Positions 6,175 through 32,935 of a stretch of 64,000 nt of DNA are shown piece after piece (within the stretch, counting starts at the first letter, position 1; every line of letters starts with the position of its first letter). Both the position numbers and the translations under genes were made by a program. A model generated the notes under the pieces. The model was not told where the DNA came from and ran no database searches. It was given only the letters and a program-made list of their open reading frames with translations. The DNA is from Actinomycetota bacterium (GTDB lineage Bacteria; Actinomycetota; Geothermincolia; Geothermincolales; RBG-13-55-18), in the NCBI GenBank assembly GCA_003598015.1, contig QZKE01000033.1:124616-188615 (forward strand), in the 5' to 3' direction.

Positions 6175-6225
6175 CTCATATCTCCTTGGCTCCAGGTCGC
6201 CGCACCGCTTTTCGCGGGCGGTCAC

Positions 6226-8303: not shown

Positions 8304-9470
8304 CTAGACCCAACCGCGCTTGGCCATGTAGTTGACCATGGGCTCGGCCAGTCCCGATCCGTACATGAGGGGAAGCATCTTCACGAAGAGGGGAAGGCTG
8401 GTCACCTTCATCACCGGGTTGAGTTTGCCGAAGCCGAGCCCTCTTTTTTTCGCCAGTTCCGACAGCATATTGAGGTAATTCGCCGGCACCGGCGCCGTTT
8501 CCCTGGCGACCAGCGACAAGGCATGCTGCGCACAGGTGGAGACACAGAGGCCGCAACCGATGCACCTGGCGAGGTCGATCTCGACCCTGCCGTCCGTCTC
8601 GGAGATCGCCTCCATCTGGCAGCGCTCCAGGCACACCCCGCATGCGGTGCAGCGTTCAGGGTATTTCCTGACCAGGAAGGCGGAGCGGACGTAATCGGCG
8701 GGCCTGTCGTGTACCTTCAACATGCGCAGCAGAGCGCAGCAGCACGAGCAGCAGCAGCACATGTGCACGATGTCCCGGCTGTTGGTGGGCATGAGTATCA
8801 TCGCGTTCTCATCGGCGCGATCGACGATCTTCAGGGCCTCGTCGATGCTTATCTCCCGCCCCTTGCCGGTGCGTATCATGTGATCGGCCCCTATGCCGAA
8901 ACTCAGGCAGGTCTCGTGCGGCTTCTCGCATTCATTGCCCAGCAGGCCCTGCTGCTTCTTGCAGATACATTCCGCCACGGCGGCCAGTTTCTGTTTCTTG
9001 ATGATCTCCCTGGCCTTGTCGAAGCTGGCGATGGATGAGGTGGGGTCCACGGCGGCGCCTACGGGCACCACGCGGTGCTGCTGAAGGACCGCGTCGCCCA
9101 GGTGTTTCTCGAATTCCACTACCATCTCCGCCAGTTCGCGGTCGATGGTGTCTACGAAGAACTCGAGGAAGCCTACCTGGTACTGCGTCGCCTGGTAGAA
9201 ATCGTGCTTGCCACTGTGGATCCTGATGATGAGTCCCGTCTGTGCCATCTCGGCGAGTTTCTCGGCGGCCCGTTCCTCGGACATCCCCCACCGCTTCGCG
9301 ATCACCGCGGGCGGTTCGGGGAACAGCCGCAACTGCATGGTAAGGCGGGCATCCTCCGGCGTGAACATCTTCGCCAGGATCTTCAGTTCCACCCCGCTCT
9401 CGGTCGAGGGGAATCCTCCCGGCGTTCTATCCAGATACTCTCGCAGTCGGGTGTAGGTTTCCTCCGGCAT
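8304..9470 (-). CDS. Iron-sulfur protein: N-terminal helical/wHTH-like region, poly-Cys tract (HMCCCCSCCC) and C-terminal 2x[4Fe-4S] ferredoxin domain
   Basis: CTACGVCLERC and CIGCGLCVSTC CxxCxxCxxxC motifs; additional CxxxC...C cysteines; RBS AAAGGAGAGG before ATG 9470. Confidence 0.7.
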   Translation of the reverse strand: MPEETYTRLREYLDRTPGGFPSTESGVELKILAKMFTPEDARLTMQLRLFPEPPAVIAKRWGMSEERAAEKLAEMAQTGLIIRIHSGKHDFYQATQYQVGFLEFFVDTIDRELAEMVVEFEKHLGDAVLQQHRVVPVGAAVDPTSSIASFDKAREIIKKQKLAAVAECICKKQQGLLGNECEKPHETCLSFGIGADHMIRTGKGREISIDEALKIVDRADENAMILMPTNSRDIVHMCCCCSCCCALLRMLKVHDRPADYVRSAFLVRKYPERCTACGVCLERCQMEAISETDGRVEIDLARCIGCGLCVSTCAQHALSLVARETAPVPANYLNMLSELAKKRGLGFGKLNPVMKVTSLPLFVKMLPLMYGSGLAEPMVNYMAKRGWV

Positions 9471-16649: not shown

Positions 16650-17918
16650 ATGGCTTTACAGGATATGGAAAGGGATATGGCGGGCTGTTCCAGGTGCTCG
16701 AGCTGCAAGTGGATACCCCACAACCAGGTCAAGAGCTGGAGGTTCGCCCAGGGGTGCCCCTCCAGTACCCGCTACAGCTTCCACGCTTACTCCGGCAGCG
16801 GCAAGATGATCATGGGGCTCTCCATGCTGCAGAGCCGCAGCGAGCTCAACGACGACGTGGCCGGCATCATCTATAACTGCCAGCTCTGCGGCTCTTGCCA
16901 GGTCTCGTGCCAGGTTTACCGGGACGACATCGACCTTTCCGACGTGCTCCTCGAGCTGAGGGCGAAGTGCGTGGAAGACGGCTTCCTCATCCTCGAGCAC
17001 ATGGAGATGCTGCAGTCCATGAAGAAGGAGGACAACCCCCTGGGCATGCTCAAGGCCGACCGCGGGAGGTGGGCGGAGGGGCTGGGCCTGCCGGAGATCG
17101 GCGGGCGCCAGGTGGAGGTGCTCTTCCATGCCGGTTGCCGCTACTCCTACGACGAAGACCTGCGCGGGACGGTGAGGGGTACGGTCTCCCTCCTGCGCGA
17201 TGCCGGTATAGATATCGGCGTGGCGGGGAAGGATGAGGCTTGCTGCGGCGGCAGGGCCTACGAACTGGGTTACCAGGGAGAGATGCGCAACTTCGCGGAC
17301 GACATGGCCGGCCGGGTCAAGGCCTCCGGCGCCCGCACGCTGGTCACGGCATGCTCCGACTGCTACTACACCTTCATGTACCTCTACCCCAAGAATGGAT
17401 TGGACCTCGGGGTCGAGGTGCTGCATATCACCGAGCTGGTAGGCCGCATGATCGAGGAGGGGAGGATCGAGCCCGCCGGCGAAGTGCCCATGCGCGTGAC
17501 CTATCACGATCCCTGCCACCTGGGCCGGCGGGGCGAGTCGTACAAGGAGGGCTGGAGCGGCGGCGACAAGCTGCTGCGGCCGGTACGTTTCAAGCAGAGC
17601 GGGCGTCTGGGTGTGTTCGACCCTCCGCGGGACATCATCAGGGCGCTGCCCGGAATCGAGCTGGTCGAGATGGAGCGCATACGTGAATACTCCTGGTGCT
17701 GCGGCGCCGGTGGCGGCGTGCTCGAGGCTTTCCCCGAGTTCGCTTCCTGGACGGCGGGAGACCGCCTGGAGGAGGCAGCGGCCACCGGGGCGGAGGCGCT
17801 GGTCACCGCATGTCCCTGGTGCGTGAGGGTGTTCCGGGACGCCGTGACGGAGCGGGGCATGGAGATGAAGATCTACGACGTGATGGAACTGCTGGCGTCG
17901 TCACTGGGAGGTGCTTGA
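16650..17918 (+). CDS. (Fe-S)-binding protein, GlcF/heterodisulfide-reductase-like with two CCG cysteine-rich domains
   Basis: CSRCSSC...C and CQLCGSCQVSCQ ferredoxin-type motifs; two CCG-type cysteine-rich repeats (AGCRYSY...ACCGG; ACSDCYY...HDPCHLGR; WCCGAGGG). Confidence 0.85.
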   Translation: MALQDMERDMAGCSRCSSCKWIPHNQVKSWRFAQGCPSSTRYSFHAYSGSGKMIMGLSMLQSRSELNDDVAGIIYNCQLCGSCQVSCQVYRDDIDLSDVLLELRAKCVEDGFLILEHMEMLQSMKKEDNPLGMLKADRGRWAEGLGLPEIGGRQVEVLFHAGCRYSYDEDLRGTVRGTVSLLRDAGIDIGVAGKDEACCGGRAYELGYQGEMRNFADDMAGRVKASGARTLVTACSDCYYTFMYLYPKNGLDLGVEVLHITELVGRMIEEGRIEPAGEVPMRVTYHDPCHLGRRGESYKEGWSGGDKLLRPVRFKQSGRLGVFDPPRDIIRALPGIELVEMERIREYSWCCGAGGGVLEAFPEFASWTAGDRLEEAAATGAEALVTACPWCVRVFRDAVTERGMEMKIYDVMELLASSLGGA

Positions 17919-17919
17919 G

Positions 17920-19572
17920 ATGATAACGGATGCAGCCTACCGGGAACTCCAGGAAACCCTGGGTGCGGAGAACGTCTCCCGCGAGCCGGCGGTGCTGGAC
18001 GGCTATACCTGGCAGCCCTTCACCGATATCCTCGGACTTCCCGACTCATGGTGCCGCTACCGGCCCGCCGCGGTGGTGCTGCCGGGAAGCACCGAAGAGG
18101 TGCAGGAGGTGGTGAGGATCTGCGGCCGGCACGGGCTGCAGTTCAAGGCCATGAGCACGGGCTGGGGCGCCTGGAACGCCATGGGCGGGGAGAACACCGT
18201 GCAGATCGACCTGAAGCGGATGAACCGCATCCTGGAGATAGACGAGAAAAACATGTACGCGGTGGTGGAGCCCTGTGCCGTCTGCTCCCAGCTGCAGGCT
18301 GAGGCGATGAAGAAGGGTTTGAACTGCCATATCATCGGGGCCGGCTGCGGCTCCTCACCATTGGCCAGCGCCACCTCGCTGTGCGGTTACGGCTGGAGCG
18401 GCCTCACCACCTCCTACAGCGCCCGCAACGTGCTGGGCGTGGAATGGGTGCTGCCCGACGGCGAGGTGCTCAGGATCGGGACCCCGGGCCAGGACGCGGG
18501 TTGGTTCAACGGCGACGGCCCCGGACCCAGCCTGCGCGGCGCCATGCGCGGCTTCATGGGTGCCTGCGGCGGCCTGGGGGTGTTCACGCGCTGCGCCGTG
18601 AAGCTCTTCCCCTGGCCGGGTCCCGAGGAGCCGCAGGTCGAGGGGCTGCTCAACGACGTCACCGCGGAGGTGCCGGACACCCACGCCATGTTCCTGATCG
18701 CCTTTCCCGACCTGCAGCGTTGGGCCGATGCCGCCTACAGTGTCGCCGACGCGGAGATAGGGTACATGATGTGTAAGAACGCCATCGGGGCCCTGGTGGC
18801 GACCATGATGCCCCGGGGGCTGAAGGAGTTGACGCGCTTTGCGGTGTTCAAGGACATACTCAAGACCTTGCGCTACCAGTTCCAGTTCCTGGTCTGCGCG
18901 AGGACGCCGCGGGAATTCGCATACCAGAAAGCGGTCCTCAGGGAGATCGTCGAGGAATGCGAGGGCATATGCCTGGACGTGAGCAAGCTGCCGGGCCTGC
19001 ACGACGCTTTCTGGTGGGGATTCGTGCGCGCGGCCATGCCCCCGCTTATCTTCCGCATGGGCGGAACCTTCGGGACCTCCTACGGCGCCCTGGAGGGGTT
19101 CGATCACCCCGCCTACCAGTCCCAGGAGGGAGCCCGCCTGAAGAGCCAGTACACCGAGACGGGCAGGCTCATGGACGACCTGGCGGACAACTCCTGGGGA
19201 GGCATCTACGAGGGGAGCACGGGGTTCGGCCACCAGGAGGAACTGTATGTTTACGACCCGCGCGACTCCGCCCAGCTGGAGGCGGCGGAGGATTATCTGG
19301 CGGGTACCCTGGTGGACACCGCGGCGAAGAAGCTGGGCCCCGGCCTGGGGTTCGCGGGAGGAGCCATCGTGGCGGAGATCTTCGGCCCCCTCATCGGCGA
19401 CTATCACGAATGGCTGCGCAAGATCAAGGGCGCCTTCGACCCGGACAACGTGAGCGATCCCGCCTTCTACGTATCCCCCGATCCGGAGAAGCTCATCGCC
19501 GAGGAGATGGCCAACCGGCCCGGCATGGCGCAGAGCCTCCTCAGCGTGATGGGGGAGGAGGATACTCCGTAG
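17920..19572 (+). CDS. FAD-binding oxidoreductase (second FAD-linked oxidase subunit, GlcE/GlcD-like)
   Basis: FAD-binding PCMH region (VVLPGSTEEVQEVVRICGRHGLQFKAMSTG); ATG 17920 with GGGAGGTG 6 nt upstream. Confidence 0.8.
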   Translation: MITDAAYRELQETLGAENVSREPAVLDGYTWQPFTDILGLPDSWCRYRPAAVVLPGSTEEVQEVVRICGRHGLQFKAMSTGWGAWNAMGGENTVQIDLKRMNRILEIDEKNMYAVVEPCAVCSQLQAEAMKKGLNCHIIGAGCGSSPLASATSLCGYGWSGLTTSYSARNVLGVEWVLPDGEVLRIGTPGQDAGWFNGDGPGPSLRGAMRGFMGACGGLGVFTRCAVKLFPWPGPEEPQVEGLLNDVTAEVPDTHAMFLIAFPDLQRWADAAYSVADAEIGYMMCKNAIGALVATMMPRGLKELTRFAVFKDILKTLRYQFQFLVCARTPREFAYQKAVLREIVEECEGICLDVSKLPGLHDAFWWGFVRAAMPPLIFRMGGTFGTSYGALEGFDHPAYQSQEGARLKSQYTETGRLMDDLADNSWGGIYEGSTGFGHQEELYVYDPRDSAQLEAAEDYLAGTLVDTAAKKLGPGLGFAGGAIVAEIFGPLIGDYHEWLRKIKGAFDPDNVSDPAFYVSPDPEKLIAEEMANRPGMAQSLLSVMGEEDTP

Positions 19573-19643: not shown

Positions 19644-19678
19644 TCAGGCATAAGTCCAGGGCCGACCCCTATGCCTGA
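19644..19678 (-). repeat. Inverted copy of the same palindromic repeat (TCAGGCATAAGTCCAGGGCCGACCCCTATGCCTGA)
   Basis: Contains exact reverse complement of AGGCATAGGGGTCGGCCCTGGACT from copy 1; lies between convergent gene ends. Confidence 0.6.
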
Positions 19679-20382
19679 TCGCCGAATCCCTTCTCGACCC
19701 GCGACAGGTGCCGGAACATGGCCGCGCGCGCCGCGGCGGGGTCGTGCGACTTCAGGGCCCGCACGATGGCGCGGTGATCGCGTACGGTCTGCCGGCGGAT
19801 GTCCGGGGATTCCGCAGTCCGCCGGCGGCTGTACACGCTCAGCTGGTTGATGGAGGACATGAAGAGCTCCAGGATACCGTTACGGGCCGCCTTGACGATC
19901 TGATTGTGGAGCGCCAGGTCCAGATGGAGGAAGGCCTCCGCATCGTCCACCCTCTCCTTCGCTTCCTTCACCAGCGCCTCCAGTTCCTCCACCTCGGAAT
20001 CGGTTATGTTGCCGGCGGCCAGCTCGGCCAGGCCTGTTTCCATAATCTTCCTGGCCTTGAAGAGGTCTACGTAGACGGCATCGTCGAGGACGAAGACCGC
20101 CTCGAGGTGTTCGATCAGCTTCTTCGGTTCCAGGGAAGTGATGTAATTCCCGGAACCCTGCCGGTTCTCGATGATGTTCATGATCTGAAGGGCTCGCAGG
20201 GCCTCCCGCAGTGAGGGGCGGCTCACCTGCATCATGCGCGCGAGCTCGCGCTCCGAGGGCAGCCGGTCCCCGGGGCGCAGCTGCTTCTCCTTGATGAGGG
20301 AGAGTATCCTCTTGGCGATCTTCATGGAGAGGGTTTCCCTCTCCAGGGTTCCGAACAGGTCCCCCCACGGCTGGTCTACCAT
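19669..20382 (-). CDS. GntR/FadR family transcriptional regulator
   Basis: wHTH RLPSERELARMMQVSRPSLREALRAL plus FadR-type C-terminal helical domain; start uncertain (20382, 20325 or track 20457). Confidence 0.8.
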   Translation of the reverse strand: MVDQPWGDLFGTLERETLSMKIAKRILSLIKEKQLRPGDRLPSERELARMMQVSRPSLREALRALQIMNIIENRQGSGNYITSLEPKKLIEHLEAVFVLDDAVYVDLFKARKIMETGLAELAAGNITDSEVEELEALVKEAKERVDDAEAFLHLDLALHNQIVKAARNGILELFMSSINQLSVYSRRRTAESPDIRRQTVRDHRAIVRALKSHDPAAARAAMFRHLSRVEKGFGDQA

Positions 20383-20392
20383 CGCCGCGGCC

Positions 20393-21163
20393 TCACTTGG
20401 CCACCCAACCACAATCCACGAGGAGGTCAGCGCCGGTGATGAAGGAGGCCTTCTCACTGGCGAGGAAATAGACCGCTTCCGCTATCTCCAGGGGAGAGGC
20501 CCAGCGCTTGAAGGCCTGCTCCGCCTCTCTCATCTTCTTGACCTCCTCGTAAGGCAGGCCGGTCCTGCGGGATTCGATATCTATGTCCCCACGCAGCATG
20601 GGGGTATCCACCGACCCCGGGCTCAACGAGTTCACCCGGATCCCGTGGGGCGCCAGTTCCCAGGCGATGGCGCGGGTGAAGGAGATGACCGCGCCCTTGC
20701 TGGCCCCGTACACGGAGTGGTCCACCTGGCCCACGTGGCCGGACACCGATCCCATGTTAACGATGGCCCCCGCACGCTGCCCCTTCATCACCGGGACGAC
20801 GTGCTTGCAGAAGAGAAAGATCCCGCCCAGGTTGATGTTCACCACCCGCCTGAACTCGTCCACGCCGATTTCCTCTACCGGCTTCACCAGCACTACGCCG
20901 GCGTTGTTCACCAGTACGTCGATGCGCCCGAAACGGTCCGCCACGTCGTGCACGAAGGAAGCTACGTCTTTCTCCTCGGCCACGTCCCCCCGGGCGCTGT
21001 GGCACGCCGCCCCCTCCGCTTCAGCGGCGGCGGCTGTCTCCTGCACGGCTTCGGCTATGTCCATGACGGCCACGTCGTATCCGTTGCGGGCGAAAAGCTC
21101 CGCCGCGGCCCTCCCGATGCCGCTCGCGGCGCCCGTGACCATGGCCAGGCTTCTTCCCTCCAT
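20393..21163 (-). CDS. SDR family NAD(P)-dependent oxidoreductase
   Basis: TGAASGIGRA Rossmann motif, NNAG, catalytic YGASK. Confidence 0.85.
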   Translation of the reverse strand: MEGRSLAMVTGAASGIGRAAAELFARNGYDVAVMDIAEAVQETAAAAEAEGAACHSARGDVAEEKDVASFVHDVADRFGRIDVLVNNAGVVLVKPVEEIGVDEFRRVVNINLGGIFLFCKHVVPVMKGQRAGAIVNMGSVSGHVGQVDHSVYGASKGAVISFTRAIAWELAPHGIRVNSLSPGSVDTPMLRGDIDIESRRTGLPYEEVKKMREAEQAFKRWASPLEIAEAVYFLASEKASFITGADLLVDCGWVAK

Positions 21164-21166
21164 CTT

Positions 21167-21973
21167 TCAAGGCCTCCTTCCTATTCCCAGCCTGCCGCGG
21201 GCTTCTTGCGGCGTGGCTACCGGCCTGCCCAGCGCCTCGGCGATGCGCCGCGCCTCCTCCACCAGCACGTGGGTGGGGGCTACCTCTCCCTCGCGGTTGA
21301 AGGGGTAGTCCTCCGTCCCCACGCGGATGTGGTCTCCCTCCACCATGGCGGCCGCCAGGAGTTTCATCTGGCTCTCGCCCATCACGCTGACCGTGCACAC
21401 GCATCCCTCCGGCATCTGCCTCCGCCGGTAGAGGTATTCATCGATGGTGGGAGGGCTCCAGGTCCCCCCCGGCCAGCCGAAGAAGAGGGTGGTGACGTAA
21501 GGTTCAGCGAGCAACCCCTCGCGCACGAGGAAGAGGAGGTTCCAGATGGAACCGCTGTGCCATACCTCGAACTCCGGCACCACGCCGGAGTCAGCGCAGG
21601 CCCGGGCATAGGAGATCAGTTCCTCCTTGGTGTGGAGGACGTTGAAATCCTCCGCGGCGAAGGCCTCGTCGTGATGGCCCAGGATCACGGATATCATGTC
21701 GCCCTTATGCGCGAAGACGTCCGCGCGCTCCTCCAGGGTGGTGCTGGACATCCCGCACTGGATGATGATATCGCACCTTTGCCGTATCGCCGGAATAACC
21801 TCGTCCCAGCGTCCTTCGGCGTGGGTGTGGCAGACCGCCGCCCCCTTTTCCAGGCAGAGCGCGGCCTCGTCCGCGATGGCCTGCGCGGTCCTGGGGTACT
21901 CCACCCCGGGATGCATCCAGCAGGTGTTGGCGGTCGCGGTGATGATTAGCGGCGTCTCAAATACCCTGCTCAT
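21167..21973 (-). CDS. 3-keto-5-aminohexanoate cleavage enzyme family (BKACE/DUF849) protein
   Basis: 268 aa; BKACE-like TIM-barrel pattern incl. HTHAEG, IIIQCGMSSTT, PEFEVWHSGS. Confidence 0.7.
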   Translation of the reverse strand: MSRVFETPLIITATANTCWMHPGVEYPRTAQAIADEAALCLEKGAAVCHTHAEGRWDEVIPAIRQRCDIIIQCGMSSTTLEERADVFAHKGDMISVILGHHDEAFAAEDFNVLHTKEELISYARACADSGVVPEFEVWHSGSIWNLLFLVREGLLAEPYVTTLFFGWPGGTWSPPTIDEYLYRRRQMPEGCVCTVSVMGESQMKLLAAAMVEGDHIRVGTEDYPFNREGEVAPTHVLVEEARRIAEALGRPVATPQEARGRLGIGRRP

Positions 21974-22003
21974 TTTCTGCTCCTCTCGCCGGCTCGCCCC
22001 GGC

Positions 22004-24280
22004 TCATGCGCCGTCCCGGCCCGTAATGCGTTTGTCCAGGGTGGTGATCCTGCGGCAACCATCGCCGGTGACGACGTAACAATCCTCCACTCCGATCAGG
22101 GTGTCGCGGAAGGGCTCCCAGGCCTCTATCTCGAAGACCATGTTCTCCTTGAAGACCCCTTCGGCGACCCCCATGGTCCCGAAGAGGTGCTGCTCCTCGC
22201 ACTCCAGGCCGATGCTGTGGCCCACCACGAAGGTGAGCCCTTCCGGCCTCAGGGACTTGTAGTAGGCGATCGCCTCCTCGTTGAGTTCCCGCATGTTTAC
22301 CCCCGGCTTCACGTGCTGCTCGTAGAACTCCTGCAGCTGTATAAGGCTGCCCACCAGCTCCTCCGCCTCGGGAGGGACTGGGCCCAGCACCAGGTGGCGG
22401 TTCACATCGGAGACGTAGCCCTTGCATACGGCGCCGAAATCGAAGCGCAGGATATCACCTTGCTCGGCCACCGTGCCCAGACCCGGGGCCTCGGGATCGG
22501 AACCCCCTATGCTCAAGGTGAGGTGATCCCATCCGTCCGCGCCCTCCGCGAGCATGGTCTGCTTGCCCAGTTTGAGGAAGTCGTTGTCGCTTATCCCCGC
22601 GGCGGCGGCCTCCATGCAGGCCGTGATGGCCTTCTCGGTAACGGCGGTGGCCTTCTCGATGAGGGTTATCTCCTCCTCGCTCTTGACCACCCGCAGGTCC
22701 AGGAAGGCCTGGTCCGCGGTGACCACCTCGAGCTCGGGGTCCTTCGAGGACAGGTGTTCGACGAGCCACTTGGGAGCGCTGGATTCGACTCCCACCCGCC
22801 TGCCCCTGAAACCCCATCTCTTGAGCTTCGACCATACCGCCCTCTTCGCTTCCCTCTGCCCGATGATGCCTTTGTACTCGTTGGCCCAGCAGAACTCGTC
22901 CACGCTCCGGAAGAGGGCCCAGTGGAAGAGGGCGAGATGTCCGTCCCGCCGCATGAGCACCACGTTGGGATACATGTTCCTGAGGGCGAAGAGGATGGGG
23001 TTGGGGGCGGTGGGCAGGGTGGGCAAACCGCTCAGGTAGTAGACGTTGATGGGGGAAGTGGCCACGAGAAGATCGAGGTCCTGCCCGTTCATGATCTCCT
23101 CGGCCCGTTCCCTGTCGAATCCGATGGGCTTCATGCGTTTCACCTCCGGCAATCCGGGGCGGGCCGGGATATGTTCTCCCAGGTCTTGGTAGAGGCTCCC
23201 GGTGCCCTCCTTCTCCGCCAGCTCCACGAGCTCTCCGCGCGTGGCCGCCCTTCCCGTGCCGGCCGAAAGGTAGCCCATGAGCACGCAGGCCACCGCGCTC
23301 TTCGCATCGTCGGGAGAGAACTCCGGCTCCCGGTCCTCGAGGATGCAGCCGGCGAAATGCTCGTCCTCGTGCCTCACCGATATGGTGTAGTAATGGGGGA
23401 AAGGGGCGTGCTCCAGTTCCGGCTCGTACCACTCACGGCGATGGTCTCCCATGGCCTTGTGGTAGGAGTAGATGCGCACCGGCCTCTCCCAGGCGTGGTT
23501 CTCGAGTATGGTTCCCTGCGTGCCGTATATCTCCAGGCTGTTGAAGGGGGTGGTCTGCTGGGTGAAGCTCACCACGACCTCCCCGATGGTCCCCCTGGAG
23601 AAGCGTATCATGGACAGGGCGTTGTCCTCGCCCTTCTCGGGATGGCTCACGGCCTGCCTGGAGAGCATGGCGGTTACTTCCTCCACGCGGTCCTGCAGGA
23701 TCCACTCCAGGGTGGCGAACTTATGGGCTCCCATGTCCATGAAACTCCCGCCCCCCGCCTTGTTGATATCTCCCTTCCAGGAATCGGGCTGGCTGAGGCC
23801 GGCGATCTCGTTCACCCCCTCGTAGGCCCTGACCAGGAGCACCTCGCCGATGAGCCCTTCCCGGATCGCGTCGTGTATGTAGCGATGGGCGGGGAGAAAG
23901 CGGTGGTTCTCCGCCACCATGAATCTCACCCCGGCCTTGCGCGTCGCCTCGATCATCGCGTCACAACCCTCCAGGGTGGTGGCCATGGGCTTCTCGCACA
24001 GCACGTGCTTGCCCGCCGCCGCGCACAAGCTCACCGTCTCCTCGTGATAGGCGTGGGGGACCGTCACCAGGACGGCATGTATATCGCTCCCCAGAAACCC
24101 CTCCAGGTCCTTGTATACGGTTACCGGGCCGGCGCGGTAGCGCCTGCTCATCTTCAAGGCGTGCCGGTAGTTGACGTCGTACATGGCCGTGAACCTGATC
24201 ATTGGTGATGCCGCGGTGGCGTTTCCGTGGAAGCTCCACGCCCCTCCCAGACCTATAACGCCGAAGTCTACCGCATTCAT
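22004..24280 (-). CDS. Fusion protein: N-terminal Gfo/Idh/MocA-family NAD(P) oxidoreductase + C-terminal creatinase/Xaa-Pro aminopeptidase (M24) domain
   Basis: Single uninterrupted 758-761 aa frame; N-term FGVIGLGGAWSF...EKPMA (Gfo/Idh/MocA); C-term HLVLGPV...HSIGLECEE (M24 pita-bread metal-ligand region). Confidence 0.7.
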   Translation of the reverse strand: MNAVDFGVIGLGGAWSFHGNATAASPMIRFTAMYDVNYRHALKMSRRYRAGPVTVYKDLEGFLGSDIHAVLVTVPHAYHEETVSLCAAAGKHVLCEKPMATTLEGCDAMIEATRKAGVRFMVAENHRFLPAHRYIHDAIREGLIGEVLLVRAYEGVNEIAGLSQPDSWKGDINKAGGGSFMDMGAHKFATLEWILQDRVEEVTAMLSRQAVSHPEKGEDNALSMIRFSRGTIGEVVVSFTQQTTPFNSLEIYGTQGTILENHAWERPVRIYSYHKAMGDHRREWYEPELEHAPFPHYYTISVRHEDEHFAGCILEDREPEFSPDDAKSAVACVLMGYLSAGTGRAATRGELVELAEKEGTGSLYQDLGEHIPARPGLPEVKRMKPIGFDRERAEEIMNGQDLDLLVATSPINVYYLSGLPTLPTAPNPILFALRNMYPNVVLMRRDGHLALFHWALFRSVDEFCWANEYKGIIGQREAKRAVWSKLKRWGFRGRRVGVESSAPKWLVEHLSSKDPELEVVTADQAFLDLRVVKSEEEITLIEKATAVTEKAITACMEAAAAGISDNDFLKLGKQTMLAEGADGWDHLTLSIGGSDPEAPGLGTVAEQGDILRFDFGAVCKGYVSDVNRHLVLGPVPPEAEELVGSLIQLQEFYEQHVKPGVNMRELNEEAIAYYKSLRPEGLTFVVGHSIGLECEEQHLFGTMGVAEGVFKENMVFEIEAWEPFRDTLIGVEDCYVVTGDGCRRITTLDKRITGRDGA

Positions 24281-24322
24281 GATTCTCATCCTCTTTCCCG
24301 TTCTCTCCCGCGTTTCAGCCCA

Positions 24323-24757
24323 TCAGTCCATCTCGTCCTGCACCAGCTCGAGCAGGTCCTTGAAACGGATGGCGTCGCTGATGATCCCGTCCACCTCGAG
24401 GTCGCCGCACATGTAAGCCGCGGTGGGATCCACGCTGCCGCTGAAGACGCCCAGGGCCACCTCTTCATCCATGTTCAATATTATGTCCGGATTGGGAAGG
24501 GAACCCGATCCCGCCTCGAACCTGCATTCGCGCACGGACAACCAGCAGAGCGGTTTGCCCTCCACGTTGATCTGGAAACTGCGGTCGAAGCCCTCCACCT
24601 CGTCCTGGACGTCTTCGGCGTTGTTGGCGATCTGGGTGAAAACGGTGAAGTAGTCCTTGATGTCAGCCATGCAGAGGGTGTTTTCCTCCATCTTCTGCAG
24701 CACCTGGTCCCGCAAGACCTCGTCTATCTGCTGCCCGCTTTCCGCTTTCCAATCCAT
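24323..24757 (-). CDS. SCP2 domain-containing protein
   Basis: ATG 24757 with AGGAGG 6-7 nt upstream; C-terminal SCP2 signature (AAYMCGDLEVDGIISDAIRFKDLL). Confidence 0.6.
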   Translation of the reverse strand: MDWKAESGQQIDEVLRDQVLQKMEENTLCMADIKDYFTVFTQIANNAEDVQDEVEGFDRSFQINVEGKPLCWLSVRECRFEAGSGSLPNPDIILNMDEEVALGVFSGSVDPTAAYMCGDLEVDGIISDAIRFKDLLELVQDEMD

Positions 24758-24994
24758 CTGCGCCCTCCTTTTCCGGCACGGCTCTTGCCCCGCGACAGCT
24801 GAATCGTCAAAGTGGTAAAATGGTAAGACCATTAAAATATAACGCGCTTCTCCTTCGCCTGTCAACCGCACCATGCGGCCGGATAGCATCTTGCGGATCA
24901 GCCGGGTGAGGCAAGTTTGGAGCTTCTCCGAGAAGTGTAGTATTTCGCGGAGTCTTCAGGGTCTACCCCCTGCGCTACTCGCGGAAGAACCTCT

Positions 24995-25759
24995 TCAGAG
25001 GGTAGACACGAATTCCGTAATGGCCCGTGAGACCTCTTGCGGTTTTTCCATGGGCGACAGGTGGCCGGCGTCGGCTATCTCGACCAGGGTGGCGTTTTCG
25101 ATGCGGTTGGCCATGAACGTGCCGTATTTCACCGGGGTCATCCTGTCGTCCGACGCGGTGAGGACGAGGACGGGGGCTCCGATCTCGTCCAACCTCTCCA
25201 TGACGTCGAAGGCGTCGCAGGCCCGAAAGTCGCCCAGGGTCACCTCGGGAGGGCACGTGGCCGTGGCCTCCATGAGAGGAGCGATACAGGAGGGGTCGGT
25301 CTTCTCGGAGATGCTGAACTTGGGCGCTCCTTCCAGGTAGGCGCGGTAATCGTTCTCGATGGTCTCGAAGATAAGCGGCATCACCCTCAGCCTCGCCCCC
25401 GAGTTCACTACGATTCCGGCCTTGTACCTTTGCGGCATGTCCAGCAACAGCTGCAGGACAATAGCGCCGCCGATGGAGAGGCCGCAGACCACGGGTCGGG
25501 TTACACCCAGGGAAGTAATGAAGCCGTCGACTATCGCGGTGTAATCCGCGATGCAGTTCTTCCCCTCGCCCCCGCTTGCGCCGTGGCCGGGCAGATCGAG
25601 GGCGATGGTGTTCATGTCGCCTGCGAGCGCTTCCACCTGCGCGCGCCACAACACGCTCGCTCCGCCGGATCCATGGATGAACACGATGGTGGGCAGGTCC
25701 GGTTCGAGCGGCCACCGGCCCGCTATGAAACCTATACCTCCGGTCTTTGATTCATACAT
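24995..25759 (-). CDS. Alpha/beta hydrolase
   Basis: IVFIHGSGG..., GLSIGG nucleophile elbow, C-terminal DAGH. Confidence 0.8.
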   Translation of the reverse strand: MYESKTGGIGFIAGRWPLEPDLPTIVFIHGSGGASVLWRAQVEALAGDMNTIALDLPGHGASGGEGKNCIADYTAIVDGFITSLGVTRPVVCGLSIGGAIVLQLLLDMPQRYKAGIVVNSGARLRVMPLIFETIENDYRAYLEGAPKFSISEKTDPSCIAPLMEATATCPPEVTLGDFRACDAFDVMERLDEIGAPVLVLTASDDRMTPVKYGTFMANRIENATLVEIADAGHLSPMEKPQEVSRAITEFVSTL

Positions 25760-27768: not shown

Positions 27769-28953
27769 ATGGAATCCATGCACTACGACCTTGTGGTGGT
27801 GGGGGGAGGCCCGGCAGGAGCGGCTGCGGCCAGGGCGGCAGTCGAAGGCGGGATGAGCACCTTACTCATCGAGAAGAAGAAGATGCCCCGGCCCAAGCAG
27901 TGTTCGGGCATGATCATGCCGGCTGCCCGGCGCTACTTGCAGGAATATTTCGGGCCCCTGCCGGAGAAGGTACTGGCGAGTCCGCCCTTCAAGGGCTCGA
28001 GCTGGCATCTCAAGGGAGACAGGACCATCAACGTACATCTGGACGGAGATAACGTATGGCGGGACAGGTTCGACCAGTGGTTGTGCGAGGAATCCGGGGC
28101 GGAAATACGTGATGGGACGAGGCTCGTGGATTTCGCGGCATGGAAGGACCATGTTGAAATCATCTGCCTCCGCAATGGCGAGGAAGTGAGGCTGCGTTCC
28201 TCGGCCATGGTAGCGGCGGACGGGGTCTATTCCGGGGTCGTAAAGAAAATAGATCCAACCTTCAATGATGGCCTGGACTGCTTCTATTACCGGCAGGACT
28301 ATTACCGCTGCGATGTGGAACTGGAGCCGGGTTATTTCCATGTTTTCCTGGATCCAAGGTTCGGGCTCTACCCCGCCGCCTATGTCAAGGACGACATTCT
28401 GGTGGTGGACAGTTGCGTACGTGCGGGAGAGAAGATCGCGCCGGCCCATGATCGCTATTGCTCATCTTTGAGCGAGAAGCACGGTTTCAAGTGTCACGAG
28501 CTGGTCATGACCTTGGGCTGCAGGGAGACCGGTACACCTGGATTCAACCGCTTCTGCCTGGGCACGGACCGCGTCCTTGTGGCGGGAGAGGCGGCCGGCT
28601 TCATAAACGGTTACGGCGAGGGCATCTCGTCGGCGTTAGCCACGGGTTATCTGGCGGGGAAAGCGGTGGTGGAATCCGGGAGCTCCTCTCCCGGGCCCGT
28701 GTATCGAGAAAGCGTTGCGCCTGAGAGGGAGCGTACCATGAAAGAATGGCACCTGCCGGACGTCATATCGGGACGCTCCAATCCGGATGTAACCCGGGCC
28801 ATTATGGCCTTGCCTCCCAAGGACATACTGCGGCTGATGCCGAAGATATTCGCCTTCGGCATCAAGCATAAAGCTTTCCCCGGGTTTCACAGGGGCAACT
28901 TGGAGCTCTCCCTGAGAAGGCTGCTGCACGGCGATTTTAACTTCCGAGGTTGA
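27769..28953 (+). CDS. FAD-dependent oxidoreductase (geranylgeranyl-reductase-like family)
   Basis: N-terminal DLVVVGGGPAGAAAARAA Rossmann FAD motif; GDAAG-like VAGEAAGF near C-terminus. Confidence 0.75.
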   Translation: MESMHYDLVVVGGGPAGAAAARAAVEGGMSTLLIEKKKMPRPKQCSGMIMPAARRYLQEYFGPLPEKVLASPPFKGSSWHLKGDRTINVHLDGDNVWRDRFDQWLCEESGAEIRDGTRLVDFAAWKDHVEIICLRNGEEVRLRSSAMVAADGVYSGVVKKIDPTFNDGLDCFYYRQDYYRCDVELEPGYFHVFLDPRFGLYPAAYVKDDILVVDSCVRAGEKIAPAHDRYCSSLSEKHGFKCHELVMTLGCRETGTPGFNRFCLGTDRVLVAGEAAGFINGYGEGISSALATGYLAGKAVVESGSSSPGPVYRESVAPERERTMKEWHLPDVISGRSNPDVTRAIMALPPKDILRLMPKIFAFGIKHKAFPGFHRGNLELSLRRLLHGDFNFRG

Positions 28954-29103
28954 TTGATAAGCATTTCAGGTTCTTCTCCGAAAAGCTTGGGTGAACAGTA
29001 TGGTGGAATCAGGGTCAGGCCAGGCCTAACGGCAGCTACTCACACTTCTCAGGGAAGAACTACATCATACCCTGGGGAGTCGTGCGAGAAATGGAGGATG
29101 ATC

Positions 29104-31170
29104 ATGATGGGAGGAAACTGGGGCAGGATTCTCGAGGTCGATCTCACGCAAAGGTCCGTGCGGGACCTGGAGCCGGATGAGCAACTGTATCGCGATTACC
29201 TGGGGGGCAGCGGCCTGGCCGCCAGGCTGTTCTTCGACCGCCGTGGTTGGGAGGCTGATCCCTTATCCCCCGAGAACCCGCTGCTGATCATGCTGGGGCC
29301 GCTCTCGGGGTTGAACCTTCCGGGGGTGTCCAGGCTGGAGATCTGCGCCCGCTCCCCCCTCACCGGCATCTGGGGGGAATCCTGCATGGGAGGCCACTTC
29401 GCCCCTCAATTGAAGCGCACCGGCTACGACGGTATCATCGTGACCGGGGCATCGGACAAGCCGGTCTACCTCTGGGTGACGGACGAGGGGGCCGAGATCC
29501 GCGACGCCTCCCACCTCTGGGGCAGGGACACCTACGAGACGGAGGATATCCTCAAGACGGAGGCGGGAGACAAGCGAGCCCAGGTGATGTGCATCGGCCT
29601 GGCCGGGGAGAACCTGGTGAAGTACGCCAACGTGATGAACGACAGGGGCTCCACAGCCGGGCGCTGCGGCATGGGGGCGGTGATGGGCTCCAAGAAGCTC
29701 AAGGCGGTGGTGGCCCGGGGCGGCAGGAAACCTCCCATCGCCGACGAGGATGGGTATAAGAAAATCCGCGAGCGGCTGGGCGAGGTATTGAAGTTCAGCA
29801 TGGTGGCCGAGTCCTTCGGCGCCTACGGGACCAACGTGGGCATGGAGTTCGGCATGGCCATGGGAGACGTACCCACCAAGAACTGGCGGGAGGCCTACTG
29901 GGAGGCCGGCCGGGAGAAGCTGGGCGGAGTGGCGGTGGCGGAGACCATCCTTACCAGGACCCACTCCTGCTACGGATGTCCCGTGGGATGCAAACGTATC
30001 GTAGAGGTGGATTCCGGCCCCTACGCCCTGGAGGAAGGTCCGGGAAGCGAGTACGAGACAGCCGCGGCCCTGGGCACCTTGCAGCGCCTGGACAGCGTGG
30101 AGGCCAATCACAAGGCCAACGAGATGTGCAACCGCTACGGCATGGACACCATCTCCGCCGGGGGGAGCATCGCCTACGCAATCGAGGCCTTCGAGGAAGG
30201 CTTGATCGTGGAGGCCGACACCGGCGGCATCAAGCTGGGCTGGAACCAGCCCGAGACCCTGCTCCTGCTCATCGACAAGATCGCCCAGAGGGAGGGTTTC
30301 GGGGATGAGCTGGCCGAGGGGGTACGGTCCATGTCCGGGAAATACGGCGGGGAGGAATTCGCCATCCACGTCAAGGGGCTGGAATGTCCCATGCACGATC
30401 CCCGGGCGATGTGGGGCCTGGCCCTTACCTATGCCACGTCGGTGAGGGGAGCGTGCCACGTCTCCGACGCGAATCTTTTCGCTGATTATGGCATAACCGA
30501 CCACAGGGACCTGGGGGCGAAGAGGTCCTGGCCGTACAGGGCCAAGGGCAAGGCGGCCCAGACGGTGGCATCGCAGGAGAAAGGATCCGTGGCCAACTCG
30601 GCGATCATCTGCCTGATCGCCTGGGCTTCGGAAGGCGGCGCCATGCGGGATATGATGGAGATGCTCAACCCCGTCACCGGCTTCGCCTACGATGTGGATG
30701 AACTGGCTCGGGTGGGGGACCGCATATGGTTTATCAAGCGCGCTATCGGCAACCTCTGCGGGGCTACACGCCAGGATGACCGGCTGCCCGCGCGCATCAT
30801 AGAGCCGCATGTTGAGGGGACCACCTCGTATCTCACCATGGCGGCATTCCCGACCATGATGTCCATGCTGCCCATGGGCAAGCTGCGGGTGGATAAGCTG
30901 AGGGATGTCCTGGCCAACTTCCAGATGAAGGTCCTGGTGCCCAACATGAACAAGCTGCTCAGATCCCAGCGCAATCTTCCCGGTTTCAGGGGCCACATGA
31001 AAAGGCTGGAGGCGGGAGAGGCGGAGGAGATAAAGCGCAGGACAGTCCCCTTCGACGATATGCTCCAGGAGTATTATCGCTTGCGTGATATAGACGGCCG
31101 GGGGCGCCCCAGCCGCAAGGTCCTCGAGAGCCTGGGGATGGGGGAGGTGGCCAAGGAGCTGCACGGCTGA
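29104..31170 (+). CDS. Aldehyde:ferredoxin oxidoreductase (tungsten-containing AOR family)
   Basis: AOR N-terminal domain (GNWGRILEVDL...GGSGLAARL) and AOR C-terminal domains with Cys ligands; GGAGG 6 nt before ATG 29104. Confidence 0.85.
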   Translation: MMGGNWGRILEVDLTQRSVRDLEPDEQLYRDYLGGSGLAARLFFDRRGWEADPLSPENPLLIMLGPLSGLNLPGVSRLEICARSPLTGIWGESCMGGHFAPQLKRTGYDGIIVTGASDKPVYLWVTDEGAEIRDASHLWGRDTYETEDILKTEAGDKRAQVMCIGLAGENLVKYANVMNDRGSTAGRCGMGAVMGSKKLKAVVARGGRKPPIADEDGYKKIRERLGEVLKFSMVAESFGAYGTNVGMEFGMAMGDVPTKNWREAYWEAGREKLGGVAVAETILTRTHSCYGCPVGCKRIVEVDSGPYALEEGPGSEYETAAALGTLQRLDSVEANHKANEMCNRYGMDTISAGGSIAYAIEAFEEGLIVEADTGGIKLGWNQPETLLLLIDKIAQREGFGDELAEGVRSMSGKYGGEEFAIHVKGLECPMHDPRAMWGLALTYATSVRGACHVSDANLFADYGITDHRDLGAKRSWPYRAKGKAAQTVASQEKGSVANSAIICLIAWASEGGAMRDMMEMLNPVTGFAYDVDELARVGDRIWFIKRAIGNLCGATRQDDRLPARIIEPHVEGTTSYLTMAAFPTMMSMLPMGKLRVDKLRDVLANFQMKVLVPNMNKLLRSQRNLPGFRGHMKRLEAGEAEEIKRRTVPFDDMLQEYYRLRDIDGRGRPSRKVLESLGMGEVAKELHG

Positions 31171-31285
31171 AGCGCCCGTCAGCTGCAAGCCTTGAGGGGC
31201 TCGGAACCCTGACTCCTGGTCACGAGGGCATGAGGTAAGGCGCCCGCCTGTTTCAACCGCCGGCTAAACCGGGTGCCCTGGCGCA

Positions 31286-32593
31286 TCAACCCAAAGCGTC
31301 CGCGAGAAAACTCAGCATTTTCGCCCAGGAGTCCGAGCTGGCGCGCGCGTTCGCCCCGGGGCTGCCGCCGAAGTCCAGGGCCATGCCGGAGAAGACGCGG
31401 GTGTAGCCCACCGTCGCCGGCTGATAGGGCATGAAGACGACGTGGCCTGCGCCGTCGTAGTCCAGGTGCTCGCAGGGGTAGGGGTGGTTGTTCTTCTCCA
31501 GGCGCCCGAGGGCGATGCGTGACAGCTCGGAGGACGGCCATACCCTGTCCCCCTTGCCGGACACCAGCAGCACCGGCCCCTTTATCTTCTCCACCTCTAT
31601 GGTGGCCTTATCCACCGACCCCTCGTCCTTCATACCCTCGATATAGGTGGACAGGGTGGAGAGGGGCTTTCCTGACATGCCGCTCCAGATGGCCTTCGCC
31701 GTGAACGCGAAGCTGTCCTTGCGCTTCGCGAAGGGCACCGCCTCCCCCCGCCAGGTCCAGGGCGTATCCGCTTCCGCTTCCCGGGGGTTCTTGTGCAGCC
31801 CCTCGAAGACCACTCCCCCTCCGGAGATGGAGACCACCGCGCTCACCTGCTCCAGTTTGGAGGCGACCAGGAGGGCGCCCTCGCCGCCCCGCGACACCCC
31901 GATGAGGGCGACGCCGTCCTCTCTCACTTCCAGCCTCGCGGACAGCCAGGCGATGCATTTCTCGAAGTATTCCACGGGGATTCTTATGTAGTCTTCCGGC
32001 TGTCCAGCGCCGCCGAAGTAGAGCAGGGAGAGCACGGCGTAGCCCCGCGAGGCCAGGAGGGACCCCCTGTCCTCCATGATGCGGTTGGAGGTGCCGTGCA
32101 TGACGATGATTCCGGGACGCGGACCGGCGGCAACGGGCTTGAAGTAGGTGCCCGTGATGCCGCCCTCGGAGACGGGGATGCGCTCCACTCCCGGCGCCAG
32201 GTACAGCCTCTCGATCTCCCTGGTGGCTGCGGCAGCCCCATCCACTTGCGCGGTGAAGGTCATCTTCTTGGGTTCGGTGTTCTCCTTCACGTATATGCCC
32301 GCGCTCTTGTCCAGCGGGGACATGGACCAGAAGAGGCCCATGGGATCGGCATCCTTGTAGGTTCCCGCGGCGGGCTTGTGCCGGGACAGGTCCGCCATGC
32401 CGTCCTCATCGCAGGTAAAGACGGCATGGGATTCCCACCTCTTCCCGGCGTCGTCATCGAGCGACGCGCCGAGGTTCACCCGCTGGTGAGGCTCGAAGCC
32501 GGCAAGCCTTATCTCCAGCGCTTCGTCGGCCAGCGAACTCTCGGGCGCTATCTCTATGCGCGGTCCTTGGGGAGCCCCTTCATCCCTTGCCAT
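31286..32593 (-). CDS. Acyl-CoA thioesterase / BAAT-family hydrolase (N-terminal thioesterase-like beta domain + C-terminal alpha/beta hydrolase)
   Basis: GVSRGG nucleophile elbow, C-terminal YDGAGH; ATG 32593 with GGGAGGTG RBS. Confidence 0.6.
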   Translation of the reverse strand: MARDEGAPQGPRIEIAPESSLADEALEIRLAGFEPHQRVNLGASLDDDAGKRWESHAVFTCDEDGMADLSRHKPAAGTYKDADPMGLFWSMSPLDKSAGIYVKENTEPKKMTFTAQVDGAAAATREIERLYLAPGVERIPVSEGGITGTYFKPVAAGPRPGIIVMHGTSNRIMEDRGSLLASRGYAVLSLLYFGGAGQPEDYIRIPVEYFEKCIAWLSARLEVREDGVALIGVSRGGEGALLVASKLEQVSAVVSISGGGVVFEGLHKNPREAEADTPWTWRGEAVPFAKRKDSFAFTAKAIWSGMSGKPLSTLSTYIEGMKDEGSVDKATIEVEKIKGPVLLVSGKGDRVWPSSELSRIALGRLEKNNHPYPCEHLDYDGAGHVVFMPYQPATVGYTRVFSGMALDFGGSPGANARASSDSWAKMLSFLADALG

Positions 32594-32935
32594 TTTGGCA
32601 CCTCCCGGTGGTAATGCACGGTTCCGCCCGTGCCGAGAGACGTTGAAAACGCACTTGACCATAGCATAACGCATGTTCGCATCCGAGTGGTGGAGAATGG
32701 CCGGCATTTTATGGTGCTGCATTACCTTCCAATCCCCTCTCGTCCCCCCGTGGTGTTTGCGTCCCGCATTCCTGCCACTCCTTCCCGTTCAAGCCGGGAA
32801 GGGTCCGGAAAATACCATCCACCTCACCGCGGGCGACCTTGGTTTGCATGCCGGCGATATACTGGCAGGGGCTCCGATGCAATAATAGAGGCATGCCGTT
32901 ACCATTGCAGGCTCTCAGGTGAGGAGGGAGGGGGC

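Follow-up and report, generated by a model that had tools for sequence, protein, structure and literature searches.

An operon with a Gfo/Idh/MocA::M24 fusion protein represents a widespread, uncharacterised cassette that may degrade a cyclitol-like compound

What does a bacterium do with a sugar-type dehydrogenase that is joined in one chain to a peptidase-like hydrolase and encoded next to an enzyme that cleaves beta-keto acids? The question is raised by a stretch of 64,000 nucleotides (the window) from an Actinomycetota bacterium (assembly GCA_003598015.1, contig QZKE01000033.1, positions 124,616 to 188,615). An earlier note, made from the sequence alone, had described a GntR-controlled operon at 19669-24289 of this stretch, with a short-chain dehydrogenase/reductase (SDR), a cleavage enzyme for beta-keto acids (BKACE), and a fusion of a Gfo/Idh/MocA (GFO) dehydrogenase to an M24 hydrolase. 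The list of open reading frames (ORFs) and Pfam confirmed its ORF positions and domain calls. The genes at 19669-24289 were correctly described, but a gene for a sterol carrier protein 2 (SCP2) fold in the same transcription unit had been overlooked, and the promoter and operator lie upstream of that gene, beyond 24289. The five minus-strand genes (SCP2, GFO::M24 fusion, BKACE, SDR, and GntR) form one tight unit with intergenic gaps of 33, 30, 3, and 10 nt in the 5'-to-3' order, and gaps of 3 to 33 nt together with a single sigma70-like promoter bear out its status as an operon. We tentatively interpret it, with somewhat less than even confidence, as a self-regulated catabolic operon and a member of an uncharacterised, conserved cassette for a sugar-like ring compound, most likely inositol or a related cyclitol. 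The genes of the operon are as follows.

24757..24323, minus strand: SCP2-fold protein of 144 aa, first gene of the operon (Pfam SCP2, E 2.9e-8)
24289..22004, minus strand: ORF of 761 aa for the GFO/IDH/MocA::Creatinase_N::M24 fusion (ORF and Pfam)
21973..21167, minus strand: BKACE of 268 aa (Pfam, E 2.5e-48)
21163..20393, minus strand: classical NAD-type SDR of 256 aa (Pfam adh_short_C2, E 1e-65)
20382..19669, minus strand: GntR regulator (FadR/FCD subfamily) of 237 aa, encoded last in the operon (Pfam GntR and FCD)

The SCP2 ATG at 24757 is preceded by the ribosome binding site AAGGAGG. Translation of the fusion more probably begins at the second ATG (24280), which gives a protein of 758 aa identical to the database protein P0001. 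The GntR ORF spans 19669..20457 on the minus strand, with the actual start being the ATG at 20382. The single frame of about 760 aa that had been proposed for the fusion is real, at 761 or 758 aa, with all of its domains recognised by Pfam.

24268..23249, minus strand: GFO dehydrogenase domain, residues 8-347 (Pfam)
23110..22685, minus strand: creatinase/prolidase N-terminal domain, residues 394-535 (PF01321, E 4.6e-6, 27.6 bits against a cut-off of 22)
22663..22067, minus strand: M24 'pita-bread' catalytic domain, residues 543-741 (PF00557, E 2e-23)

The dehydrogenase half consists of a GFO_IDH_MocA domain at residues 8-126 (PF01408, E 1e-21) and GFO C-terminal domains at residues 136-347 (PF22725, E 5e-24; PF02894, E 2e-15). 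Foldseek matched it to sugar and inositol dehydrogenases with target-normalised TM-scores (TMt) of 0.82-0.86, and Thermotoga TM0414 (3ezy) was among the best structural matches. Residues E99-K100-P101 (EKP), D185, and H189 were invariant across 79 sequences; the EKP lysine and the Asp-x3-His pair presumably have the roles that they have in inositol dehydrogenase. By the usual Rossmann-fold rule, D38 at the end of strand beta2 suggests that the domain uses NAD+. Its best NCBIfam model was IolG (TIGR04380), with 140 bits against a cut-off of 355.

The five metal ligands of the M24 half (D617, D628, H691, E722, and E735) were all present and likewise invariant in the 79 sequences, and they align with D209/D220/H284/E313/E327 of the P. 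furiosus prolidase 1pv9, in what we take to be the numbering of its ligands. The residues that we assume to contact the dipeptide in this prolidase, His291 and Arg295, correspond in a pairwise alignment to Cys697 and a Q-H-L stretch; at least 90% of the 79 sequences share Cys697, and the family also has a conserved M24 stretch of its own, S-I-G-x-S-D-P-E-A-P-G. Since the metal ligands are kept and the two prolidase substrate contacts are absent, we read the domain as a hydrolase or lyase other than a peptidase. It shares with M24B prolidases and aminopeptidase P the two-domain fold of Creatinase_N and pita-bread as well as the five ligands (24% identity and a TMt of 0.84 for a Deinococcus prolidase), and it differs from them in the replaced His and Arg positions and in being fused to, or encoded beside, a sugar-type dehydrogenase, always inside a carbohydrate-like catabolic cassette. 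An AlphaFold2 model of the whole fusion had a pLDDT of 91.9, a pTM of 0.81, and a structured helical linker. Foldseek found no solved structure containing both halves, as the best query-normalised TM-score was 0.42 and the matches always covered one domain. None of the operon proteins reached an NCBIfam cut-off; all four catalytic units look active, and a known specificity can be assigned to none.

To the question of how unusual the fusion is, the answer is divided. In metagenomes it is common: when 5.8 billion proteins, clustered at 90% identity, were searched, more than 110 clusters at 50-86% identity proved to have the same five Pfam domains in one chain. As far as we found, it is also uncharacterised. 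The database names are merely 'M24 family metallopeptidase' or 'predicted dehydrogenase/Xaa-Pro aminopeptidase', sometimes with '/putative sterol carrier protein' added, and the literature yielded neither a description of a GFO::M24 fusion nor a report linking BKACE with inositol; a preprint on BKACE genomic context (NetSyn) does not mention M24, SCP2, or GFO neighbours. The metagenome-assembled genomes that carry the fusion bear names such as Actinobacteria, Spirochaetes/Treponema, Chloroflexi/Dehalococcoidia, Anaeromyxobacter, and Lachnospiraceae, and two cultured carriers emerged, Treponema sp. TIM-1 and Hungatella effluvii (WP_320986983.1). Among representatives at 50% identity, 117 of which matched better than 1e-30, only two sequences, with 756 and 898 aa, stand for the whole fused family, and it is therefore a single compact orthologous group spread over several phyla. 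A different protein of 756 aa, P0298, was rejected as a second fusion family, being a GFO-GFO tandem.

Scanning metagenomes for patterns particular to the M24 half added 80 loci. An earlier scan of one genome per species with generic GFO peptide patterns had returned almost exclusively unrelated Gfo/Idh/MocA genes, with L001 as the sole true relative. Among the 67 loci with enough upstream sequence, 56 had the fused gene, 8 had adjacent separate genes, and 3 had the reversed order, M24 and then GFO; the reversed group includes the Promethearchaeota locus L001 as well as L168/L169. In the Asgard-like loci (L001, L166, L168, and L169) the partners are separate, with M24 before GFO, and L166 and L168 have two pairs each; their neighbours include a PIG-L deacetylase, a GH5 glycosidase, a URO-D-like protein, PfkB, and a transporter of the major facilitator superfamily (MFS).

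The adjacent split genes break exactly at the GFO/M24 domain junction, and they do so in two ways. In type A, found in nine loci (L094, L098-L101, L104, L105, L109, and L110), there is one base fewer than in the window: CTG CGG AGG TGA stands where the window has TTG CCG GAG GTG, the dehydrogenase stops within GGAGGTGA or GGAGGTAA, and the ATG of M24 follows 5-6 nt further on. In type B (L103 and L112), stop and start overlap as ATGA. Because the split genes differ in two ways at the junction, fusion or fission occurred at least twice, each time through a one-base change. The fused and split versions are interchangeable, and the fact that both forms are kept provides a Rosetta-stone argument that the GFO and M24 proteins cooperate whether joined or not, in consecutive steps or in a complex. 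Such closeness of the two forms also gives some substance to the suspicion, raised in the earlier note as a possible refutation, that the fusion in the window is an assembly or sequencing artefact joining two neighbouring genes, as a single indel at this very junction could make or break it. This explanation is highly improbable and was not borne out: the fused state is the majority (56/67), it recurs in independent assemblies in proteins 83-86% identical to that of the window (P0002, 86%; L090, 83%), and the linker is conserved and confidently modelled. A further irregularity was seen in L102, in which an in-frame stop at 9116-9118, in the GFO domain after residue ~243, could reflect a pseudogene, a sequencing error, or recoding; the 510-535-aa database proteins P0111, P0115, and P0118 may be gene calls of the same kind.

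The junction keeps a translation start even where the genes are fused.

23147..23132, minus strand: GGAGG (23147..23143), 8 nt, and the in-frame ATG of Met386 (23134..23132), a candidate internal start for a free M24 subunit

The window reads CC GGAGG TGAAACGC ATG at this point, and the split genes start M24 at exactly this ATG. A Shine-Dalgarno (SD) core 4-12 nt before an in-frame ATG or GTG was kept in 38/40 distinct fused junctions (L081-L167). The residue at the start position was Met or Val, both encoded by start codons, and a few sequences had the ATG one codon earlier. The Glu codon within the SD motif was GAG in all of the cases (38/38), compared with 28-86% GAG among the Glu codons of the same genes. 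The probability of this bias is near 1e-9 if the sequences are treated as independent, a figure that is overstated because they are related. Fused genes may thus also yield a free M24 subunit, of approximately 42 kDa, from the internal start; alternatively, the SD motif may persist because lineages keep alternating between the fused and split states.

The surroundings of the fusion were well conserved. BKACE lay directly downstream in 61/75 loci with enough sequence, and an SDR came next in 55/64. An extended SDR of the epimerase/dehydratase family was present in 35/51 loci, and several loci without it had instead a second classical SDR resembling sugar 1-dehydrogenases. The conserved cassette is SCP2 / GFO::M24 / BKACE / SDR / third oxidoreductase, with a GntR regulator in approximately 17 loci and an IclR regulator in approximately 10. 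In 12 of the 43 long loci an ABC transporter of the CUT2 family was encoded within 10 kb, and in 5 there was an MFS transporter. The Hungatella-type locus is self-contained, as it combines SCP2, the fusion, BKACE, SDR, the extended SDR, a substrate-binding protein (SBP), ATPase, permease, and IclR between unrelated flanks. About a quarter of the long loci carry an accessory set composed of IclR, a split transketolase, an RpiB-like protein (PRK09273), an IolD-like thiamine pyrophosphate (TPP) enzyme, a CoA-acylating methylmalonate/malonate-semialdehyde dehydrogenase (MMSDH/IolA), and a second GFO. The MMSDH passes its model cut-off, and the TPP enzyme is distant from IolD (119 bits, cut-off 715). 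The set stands beside the cassette in L082 (415-9823), L084 (1249-9346), L087 (20419-22736), L142, L119, L121, L126, and L133, and, lacking IolE/B/C/J, it may be another uncharacterised sugar or cyclitol module.

A clue to the substrate came from the transporter, whose SBP is encoded, for example, at 13731-14789 of L150. Against PDB 4yo7, the SBPs of two distant cassette loci reached 220 and 190 bits; the best ribose-binding proteins gave 115 and 112 bits. We take 4yo7 to be a Bacillus halodurans protein solved with myo-inositol and relied on operon context in place of this identification, for which the 4yo7 sequence was rebuilt from the alignment and used as a query. It was 100% identical to P0307, named 'inositol transport system substrate-binding protein' by JGI, and the P0307 gene lies directly upstream of genes whose Pfam order fits canonical iolB-C-D-E-G-H-J (locus L171): KduI for IolB, PfkB for IolC, a 637-aa TPP enzyme for IolD, and then IolE, IolG, IolH, and IolJ. 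The cassette transporter and that of this iol operon are approximately 36-43% identical in the SBP, 46-49% in the ATPase, and 41-43% in the permease. No homologue of IolB, IolE, or IolH was found in the 91 family loci; IolD-like matches occurred in 7 loci (24-29% identity) and IolC-like matches in 3 (19-28%), so that none contains a canonical iol set. Because the transporter resembles that of an iol operon, the best model for GFO is IolG, and IolB/E/H are absent, the simplest interpretation is that the cassette imports a cyclitol resembling inositol and breaks it down with no help from the canonical enzymes.

Two lineages carry additional genes beside the cassette. In one bacterial lineage (L115-L117, e.g., L116 85-2976), these encode a corrinoid-binding protein, CobW, and a URO-D-family methyltransferase; in the archaeal-type loci L168 (6292-7422) and L169, a URO-D-like gene follows BKACE. 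They may tie the cassette to the removal of methyl groups from O-methylated substrates, for instance methyl-inositols or methoxy-aromatics, a link that we set aside, as the URO-D and B12-binding genes adjoin the cassette in these two lineages only.

Among the remaining proteins, the BKACE was assigned to its family with 165 bits to PF05853 (cut-off 24.8). Aligned with Kce (2y7d), it matches the HTH, EFE, and R-V-G-T-E-D stretches and keeps the zinc ligands, HxH (H49, H51) and Glu, as well as the catalytic Glu, Arg, and Asp; where Kce has the Glu that presumably binds the substrate amino group, the alignment shows a gap. The lysine-fermentation enzyme Kce was the best-scoring NCBIfam model, with 136 bits against the 382-bit cut-off for the amino-substrate type that has the amino-binding Glu. 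The model for the triacetate/3,5-dioxohexanoate enzyme (NF053538) gave 86 bits against 430 and covered the C-terminal half only. BKACEs on PLSDB plasmids were at most 35% identical to that of the window; the best of them, from Sinorhizobium americanum, lies beside cyclase-family and epimerase-family genes, the epimerase being unrelated to that of the cassette. L095 has two BKACE matches between the fusion and the SDR. That a BKACE is partnered here with a dehydrogenase, as the earlier note had it, holds good, given the kept zinc ligands and catalytic residues and the NAD-type SDR beside it. The closest solved relative of the SDR was 3-hydroxybutyrate dehydrogenase 6zzq (163 bits). The three positions that we take to bind the carboxylate in 6zzq are V/H/D in the window protein, and a 3-hydroxybutyrate dehydrogenase that reduces acetoacetate was rejected because these positions differ. 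The SCP2 protein has a clear SCP2 fold (PF02036, E 2.9e-8; AlphaFold2 pLDDT 93.9), with Foldseek matches to SCP2, UbiJ, and alkylsulfatase SCP2 domains at a query-normalised TM-score (TMq) of approximately 0.6 and a probability of 1.00. In the fused loci, SCP2 was separate in 27, N-terminally fused in 23, and absent from 3; among related loci, roughly 40% have it joined to the N-terminus of the dehydrogenase. Triple fusions of approximately 900-930 aa, with SCP2 N-terminal to GFO::M24, were found in L082, L083, L086, L087, L119-L133, L141, L146-L147, and L155-L164.

The regulatory region lies upstream of the SCP2 gene.

24865..24836, minus strand: sigma70-like promoter, TTGACA-18 nt-TATATT, matching the consensus in 11/12 hexamer bases
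24833..24819, minus strand: putative operator for a GntR regulator of the FadR/FCD type, the palindrome AATGGTCTTACCATT, just past the -10 hexamer

The region contained three promoter-like sites, with 1.2 expected from shuffled sequence. The operator core TGGTCTTACCA occupies 24831..24821, and the palindrome TGGTNNNACCA fits TnGTnnnACnA, presumably the operator consensus of the GntR FadR/FCD subfamily. When the approximately 260 nt preceding the SCP2 gene or domain were searched in related loci, the strict palindrome TGGTNNNACCA was found in seven distinct GntR-bearing loci (window, L081, L090, L097, L108, L111, and L113), always 74-121 nt upstream of SCP2, and a near-match in L084/L085; it was present in none of the SCP2 upstream regions of approximately 35 GntR-less loci. 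The regulator itself has a winged-helix GntR domain (PF00392, E 8.5e-18) and an FCD effector domain (PF07729, E 1.6e-27), its nearest NCBIfam models are NanR and LldR, both under cut-off, and it occupies the same position in L081, L084, L086, L088, and others. Because the operator recurs with GntR genes, while chance would produce it at approximately 0.004 per locus by our estimate for 8 fixed bases in 270 nt, control of the operon by GntR, also predicted in the earlier note, appears well supported by sequence. An FCD-type GntR would repress the operon at the TGGTCTTACCA operator, which overlaps the promoter, probably until an acidic intermediate builds up.

From the gene content, the conserved catalytic residues, the linkage, and the regulatory motif, we infer the following chemistry. 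The NAD+-dependent GFO domain would oxidise a hydroxyl of the substrate ring. The dinuclear-metal M24 domain, acting beside the dehydrogenase or in a complex with it, would then process the keto-ring in a reaction other than peptide cleavage, either hydrolytic ring opening, for which the Mn-dependent cyclohydrolase of phloroglucinol degradation and the Thermotoga enzyme IolN provide precedents, or metal-assisted dehydration, for which the metal-dependent IolE does. By oxidation, the SDR would turn a 3-hydroxy acid with a CH2 group at C2 into a beta-keto acid; 5-deoxy-glucuronate is an example of a ring-opened deoxy acid that offers a CH2 beside the carboxylate and a hydroxyl one carbon on. Finally, BKACE would cleave the beta-keto acid with acetyl-CoA to acetoacetate and an acyl-CoA, in place of the kinase and aldolase steps of the iol pathway. 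The third oxidoreductase, an extended or second classical SDR that is encoded in most relatives and was not found in the window, may be a dehydratase or a second ring dehydrogenase, or may act on the acyl-CoA product. A broader version of this proposal, in which anaerobes of several phyla (Hungatella, Treponema, Chloroflexota, Actinomycetota, and Asgard archaea) share an unrecognised cyclitol (inositol-type) pathway, with a prolidase-like M24 enzyme recruited for non-peptide reactions of the oxidised ring and coupled physically to the dehydrogenase that supplies it, a BKACE replacing kinase and aldolase and yielding acetoacetate and an acyl-CoA, and possibly a free M24 subunit made from the conserved internal ribosome binding site, is conceivable but rather unlikely.

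Several points weigh against a cyclitol as the substrate. No member of the family has a known substrate, and the order of the reactions is one that we infer. The operon of the window has neither a transporter nor a third oxidoreductase, so that the substrate was deduced from relatives, in which an SBP identity of approximately 40% leaves the ligand unfixed. The score of the GFO domain is far under the IolG cut-off, and no more than about a quarter of the loci have the IolD-like, transketolase, and RpiB-like neighbours. We know of no M24 enzyme that breaks C-C or lactone bonds or that dehydrates a cyclitol. The SCP2 fold, which suits hydrophobic ligands or acyl-CoAs, has no explanation for a polar substrate.

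Three other substrates deserve consideration. The first would be met by an oxidative pathway for a 2-deoxy-aldose similar to deoxyribose, which we consider unlikely. Here GFO would be an aldose 1-dehydrogenase, M24 would hydrolyse the lactone, the SDR would produce a 2-deoxy-3-keto-aldonate, and BKACE would release acetoacetate and glyceryl-CoA or a longer acyl-CoA. Aldose 1-dehydrogenases are indeed among the GFO matches, it would be sensible to fuse the consecutive dehydrogenase and lactone hydrolase steps, and some loci have RpiB-like and transketolase neighbours. The transporter can be read both ways: it is of the CUT2 (ribose) family, with RbsB as the highest-scoring NCBIfam model for the SBP (91 bits), but in bits the SBPs are approximately twice as close to the inositol-operon SBP as to ribose-binding proteins. 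We know of no M24 lactonase, and no BKACE from a proteobacterial plasmid is more than 35% identical to that of the window. Both the logic and the number of the enzymes match the GntR-SDR-BKACE-lactonase cluster of Pseudomonas simiae (bioRxiv 10.1101/205583).

Quite improbable, in our view, is the anaerobic degradation of an aromatic-derived or alicyclic beta-diketone resembling phloroglucinol, in which the SDR would reduce the ring, M24 would open it by a retro-Claisen reaction in the role of the Mn-dependent cyclohydrolase, GFO would oxidise the 3-hydroxy acid, and BKACE would cleave the product. The four reaction types have counterparts in a characterised pathway (PMC10470551), and most carriers are anaerobes. 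A less polar substrate would suit the SCP2 domain, a PcaD-like alpha/beta hydrolase adjoins the window operon, and corrinoid or URO-D-type methyltransferases, possible O-demethylases, adjoin the cassette in L115-117 and L168/169, although this association is confined to two lineages. However, the SDR is of the NAD type, with beta2 ending in Asp, and does not have the TR(S/N) NADPH motif found in phloroglucinol reductases, the BKACE reaches only 86 of the 430 bits needed for the 3,5-dioxohexanoate model, GFO enzymes normally act on sugar or cyclitol rings, and the linked transporters are of the sugar type. Of all the substrate readings, the beta-amino acid, osmolyte, or peptide route suggested in the earlier note, with M24 as an amidohydrolase or amidinohydrolase in the manner of prolidase, creatinase, or ectoine hydrolase and BKACE acting on an amino-keto acid, has the least support, and we regard it as very doubtful. 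The complete dinuclear metal site, prolidases as the nearest M24 relatives, a weak match to an ectoine-hydrolase model (36 bits), and Kce as the best BKACE model would agree with it, but every one of these scores is far under cut-off, the prolidase His291/Arg295 positions are replaced, and the Kce amino-binding Glu position is a gap. Moreover, an amino-acid or betaine transporter, an aminotransferase, or an ammonia-lyase was found in 0 of 91 loci, and the neighbours are sugar-type. The osmolyte and beta-amino parts of that suggestion were therefore not borne out, while a beta-hydroxy acid stays plausible as an intermediate.

The preferred cyclitol reading can be set against known pathways. With canonical myo-inositol catabolism of the Bacillus type (IolG-E-D-B-C-J-A; L171), the cassette shares an inositol-type CUT2 transporter and a Gfo/Idh/MocA first enzyme, and some relatives also have the distant IolD-like TPP enzyme and MMSDH/IolA. 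It differs in that IolE, IolB, and IolH are missing from the 91 loci and IolC-like matches are weak (IolJ was not searched), in having M24, SCP2, SDR, and BKACE instead, and in its end products, which would be acetoacetate and an acyl-CoA rather than dihydroxyacetone phosphate and malonate semialdehyde. An inositol pathway described from Anaerostipes is the canonical one with a CoA transferase. In the pathway of Thermotoga maritima (IolG, IolM, IolN, and IolO), dehydrogenases reportedly oxidise the ring and the hydrolase IolN opens it, replacing IolE/IolD; the product is said to be 5-keto-L-gluconate, which is not a beta-keto acid, and BKACE, M24, and SCP2 are reportedly not involved.

The operon is a variant of known BKACE-dependent catabolic modules. 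In the deoxyribose/deoxyribonate pathway of P. simiae (Price et al., bioRxiv 10.1101/205583), GntR, SDR, and BKACE are likewise clustered with a ring-opening hydrolase, the logic is likewise oxidation, hydrolysis, oxidation, and cleavage with acetyl-CoA, and BKACE is proposed to cleave 2-deoxy-3-keto-ribonate; the lactonase is separately encoded and the first dehydrogenase is a molybdoenzyme, whereas the cassette has the GFO::M24 fusion with its SCP2 partner. In the phloroglucinol pathway of anaerobes (PGR, DPGC, TfD, and TAL; PMC10470551), a metal-dependent ring hydrolase and a dehydrogenase likewise feed an acetoacetate-releasing BKACE, but the ring hydrolase is a cyclase-family enzyme and the dehydrogenase a member of the 3-hydroxyacyl-CoA dehydrogenase family, both absent from the cassette, and the SDR is NADPH dependent.

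Inositols and other cyclitols are abundant carbon sources in plants and in the diet, and their fermentation by gut anaerobes affects short-chain acids relevant to the host. If the proposal is correct, a second, BKACE-dependent route would alter the prediction of inositol use from genomes, because its carriers lack the markers iolE, iolB, and iolH. The M24 'pita-bread' fold would gain a non-peptide reaction new to it and the BKACE family a new class of physiological substrate, and the route would explain thousands of 'M24 family metallopeptidase' names within sugar-type operons. The repeated one-base fusion and fission with a kept translation start is a clean natural example of gene fusions arising and reverting.

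Finally, no transporter, third oxidoreductase, or accessory genes were found near the operon in the window. Directly upstream of the promoter, at 24995-25759 on the minus strand, lies the gene for an alpha/beta hydrolase, nearest to 3-oxoadipate enol-lactonase but below the cut-off; homologues with approximately 50% identity lie downstream of the fusion in L114-L116, where BKACE was not detected in the downstream sequence. On the other side, at 16650-19572 on the plus strand, a CCG/4Fe-4S protein and a FAD_binding_4 protein, which resemble glycolate/lactate oxidase subunits, are encoded convergently with the operon and end approximately 100 nt from the GntR stop codon. Locus L089 comes from the contig of the window itself; its stretch 1688-6512, which lies further upstream of the operon at approximately 27770-32600 of the window, encodes a FAD-dependent oxidoreductase, a tungsten-type aldehyde:ferredoxin oxidoreductase (AFOR_N/AFOR_C), and a BAAT/dienelactone-hydrolase-like protein.

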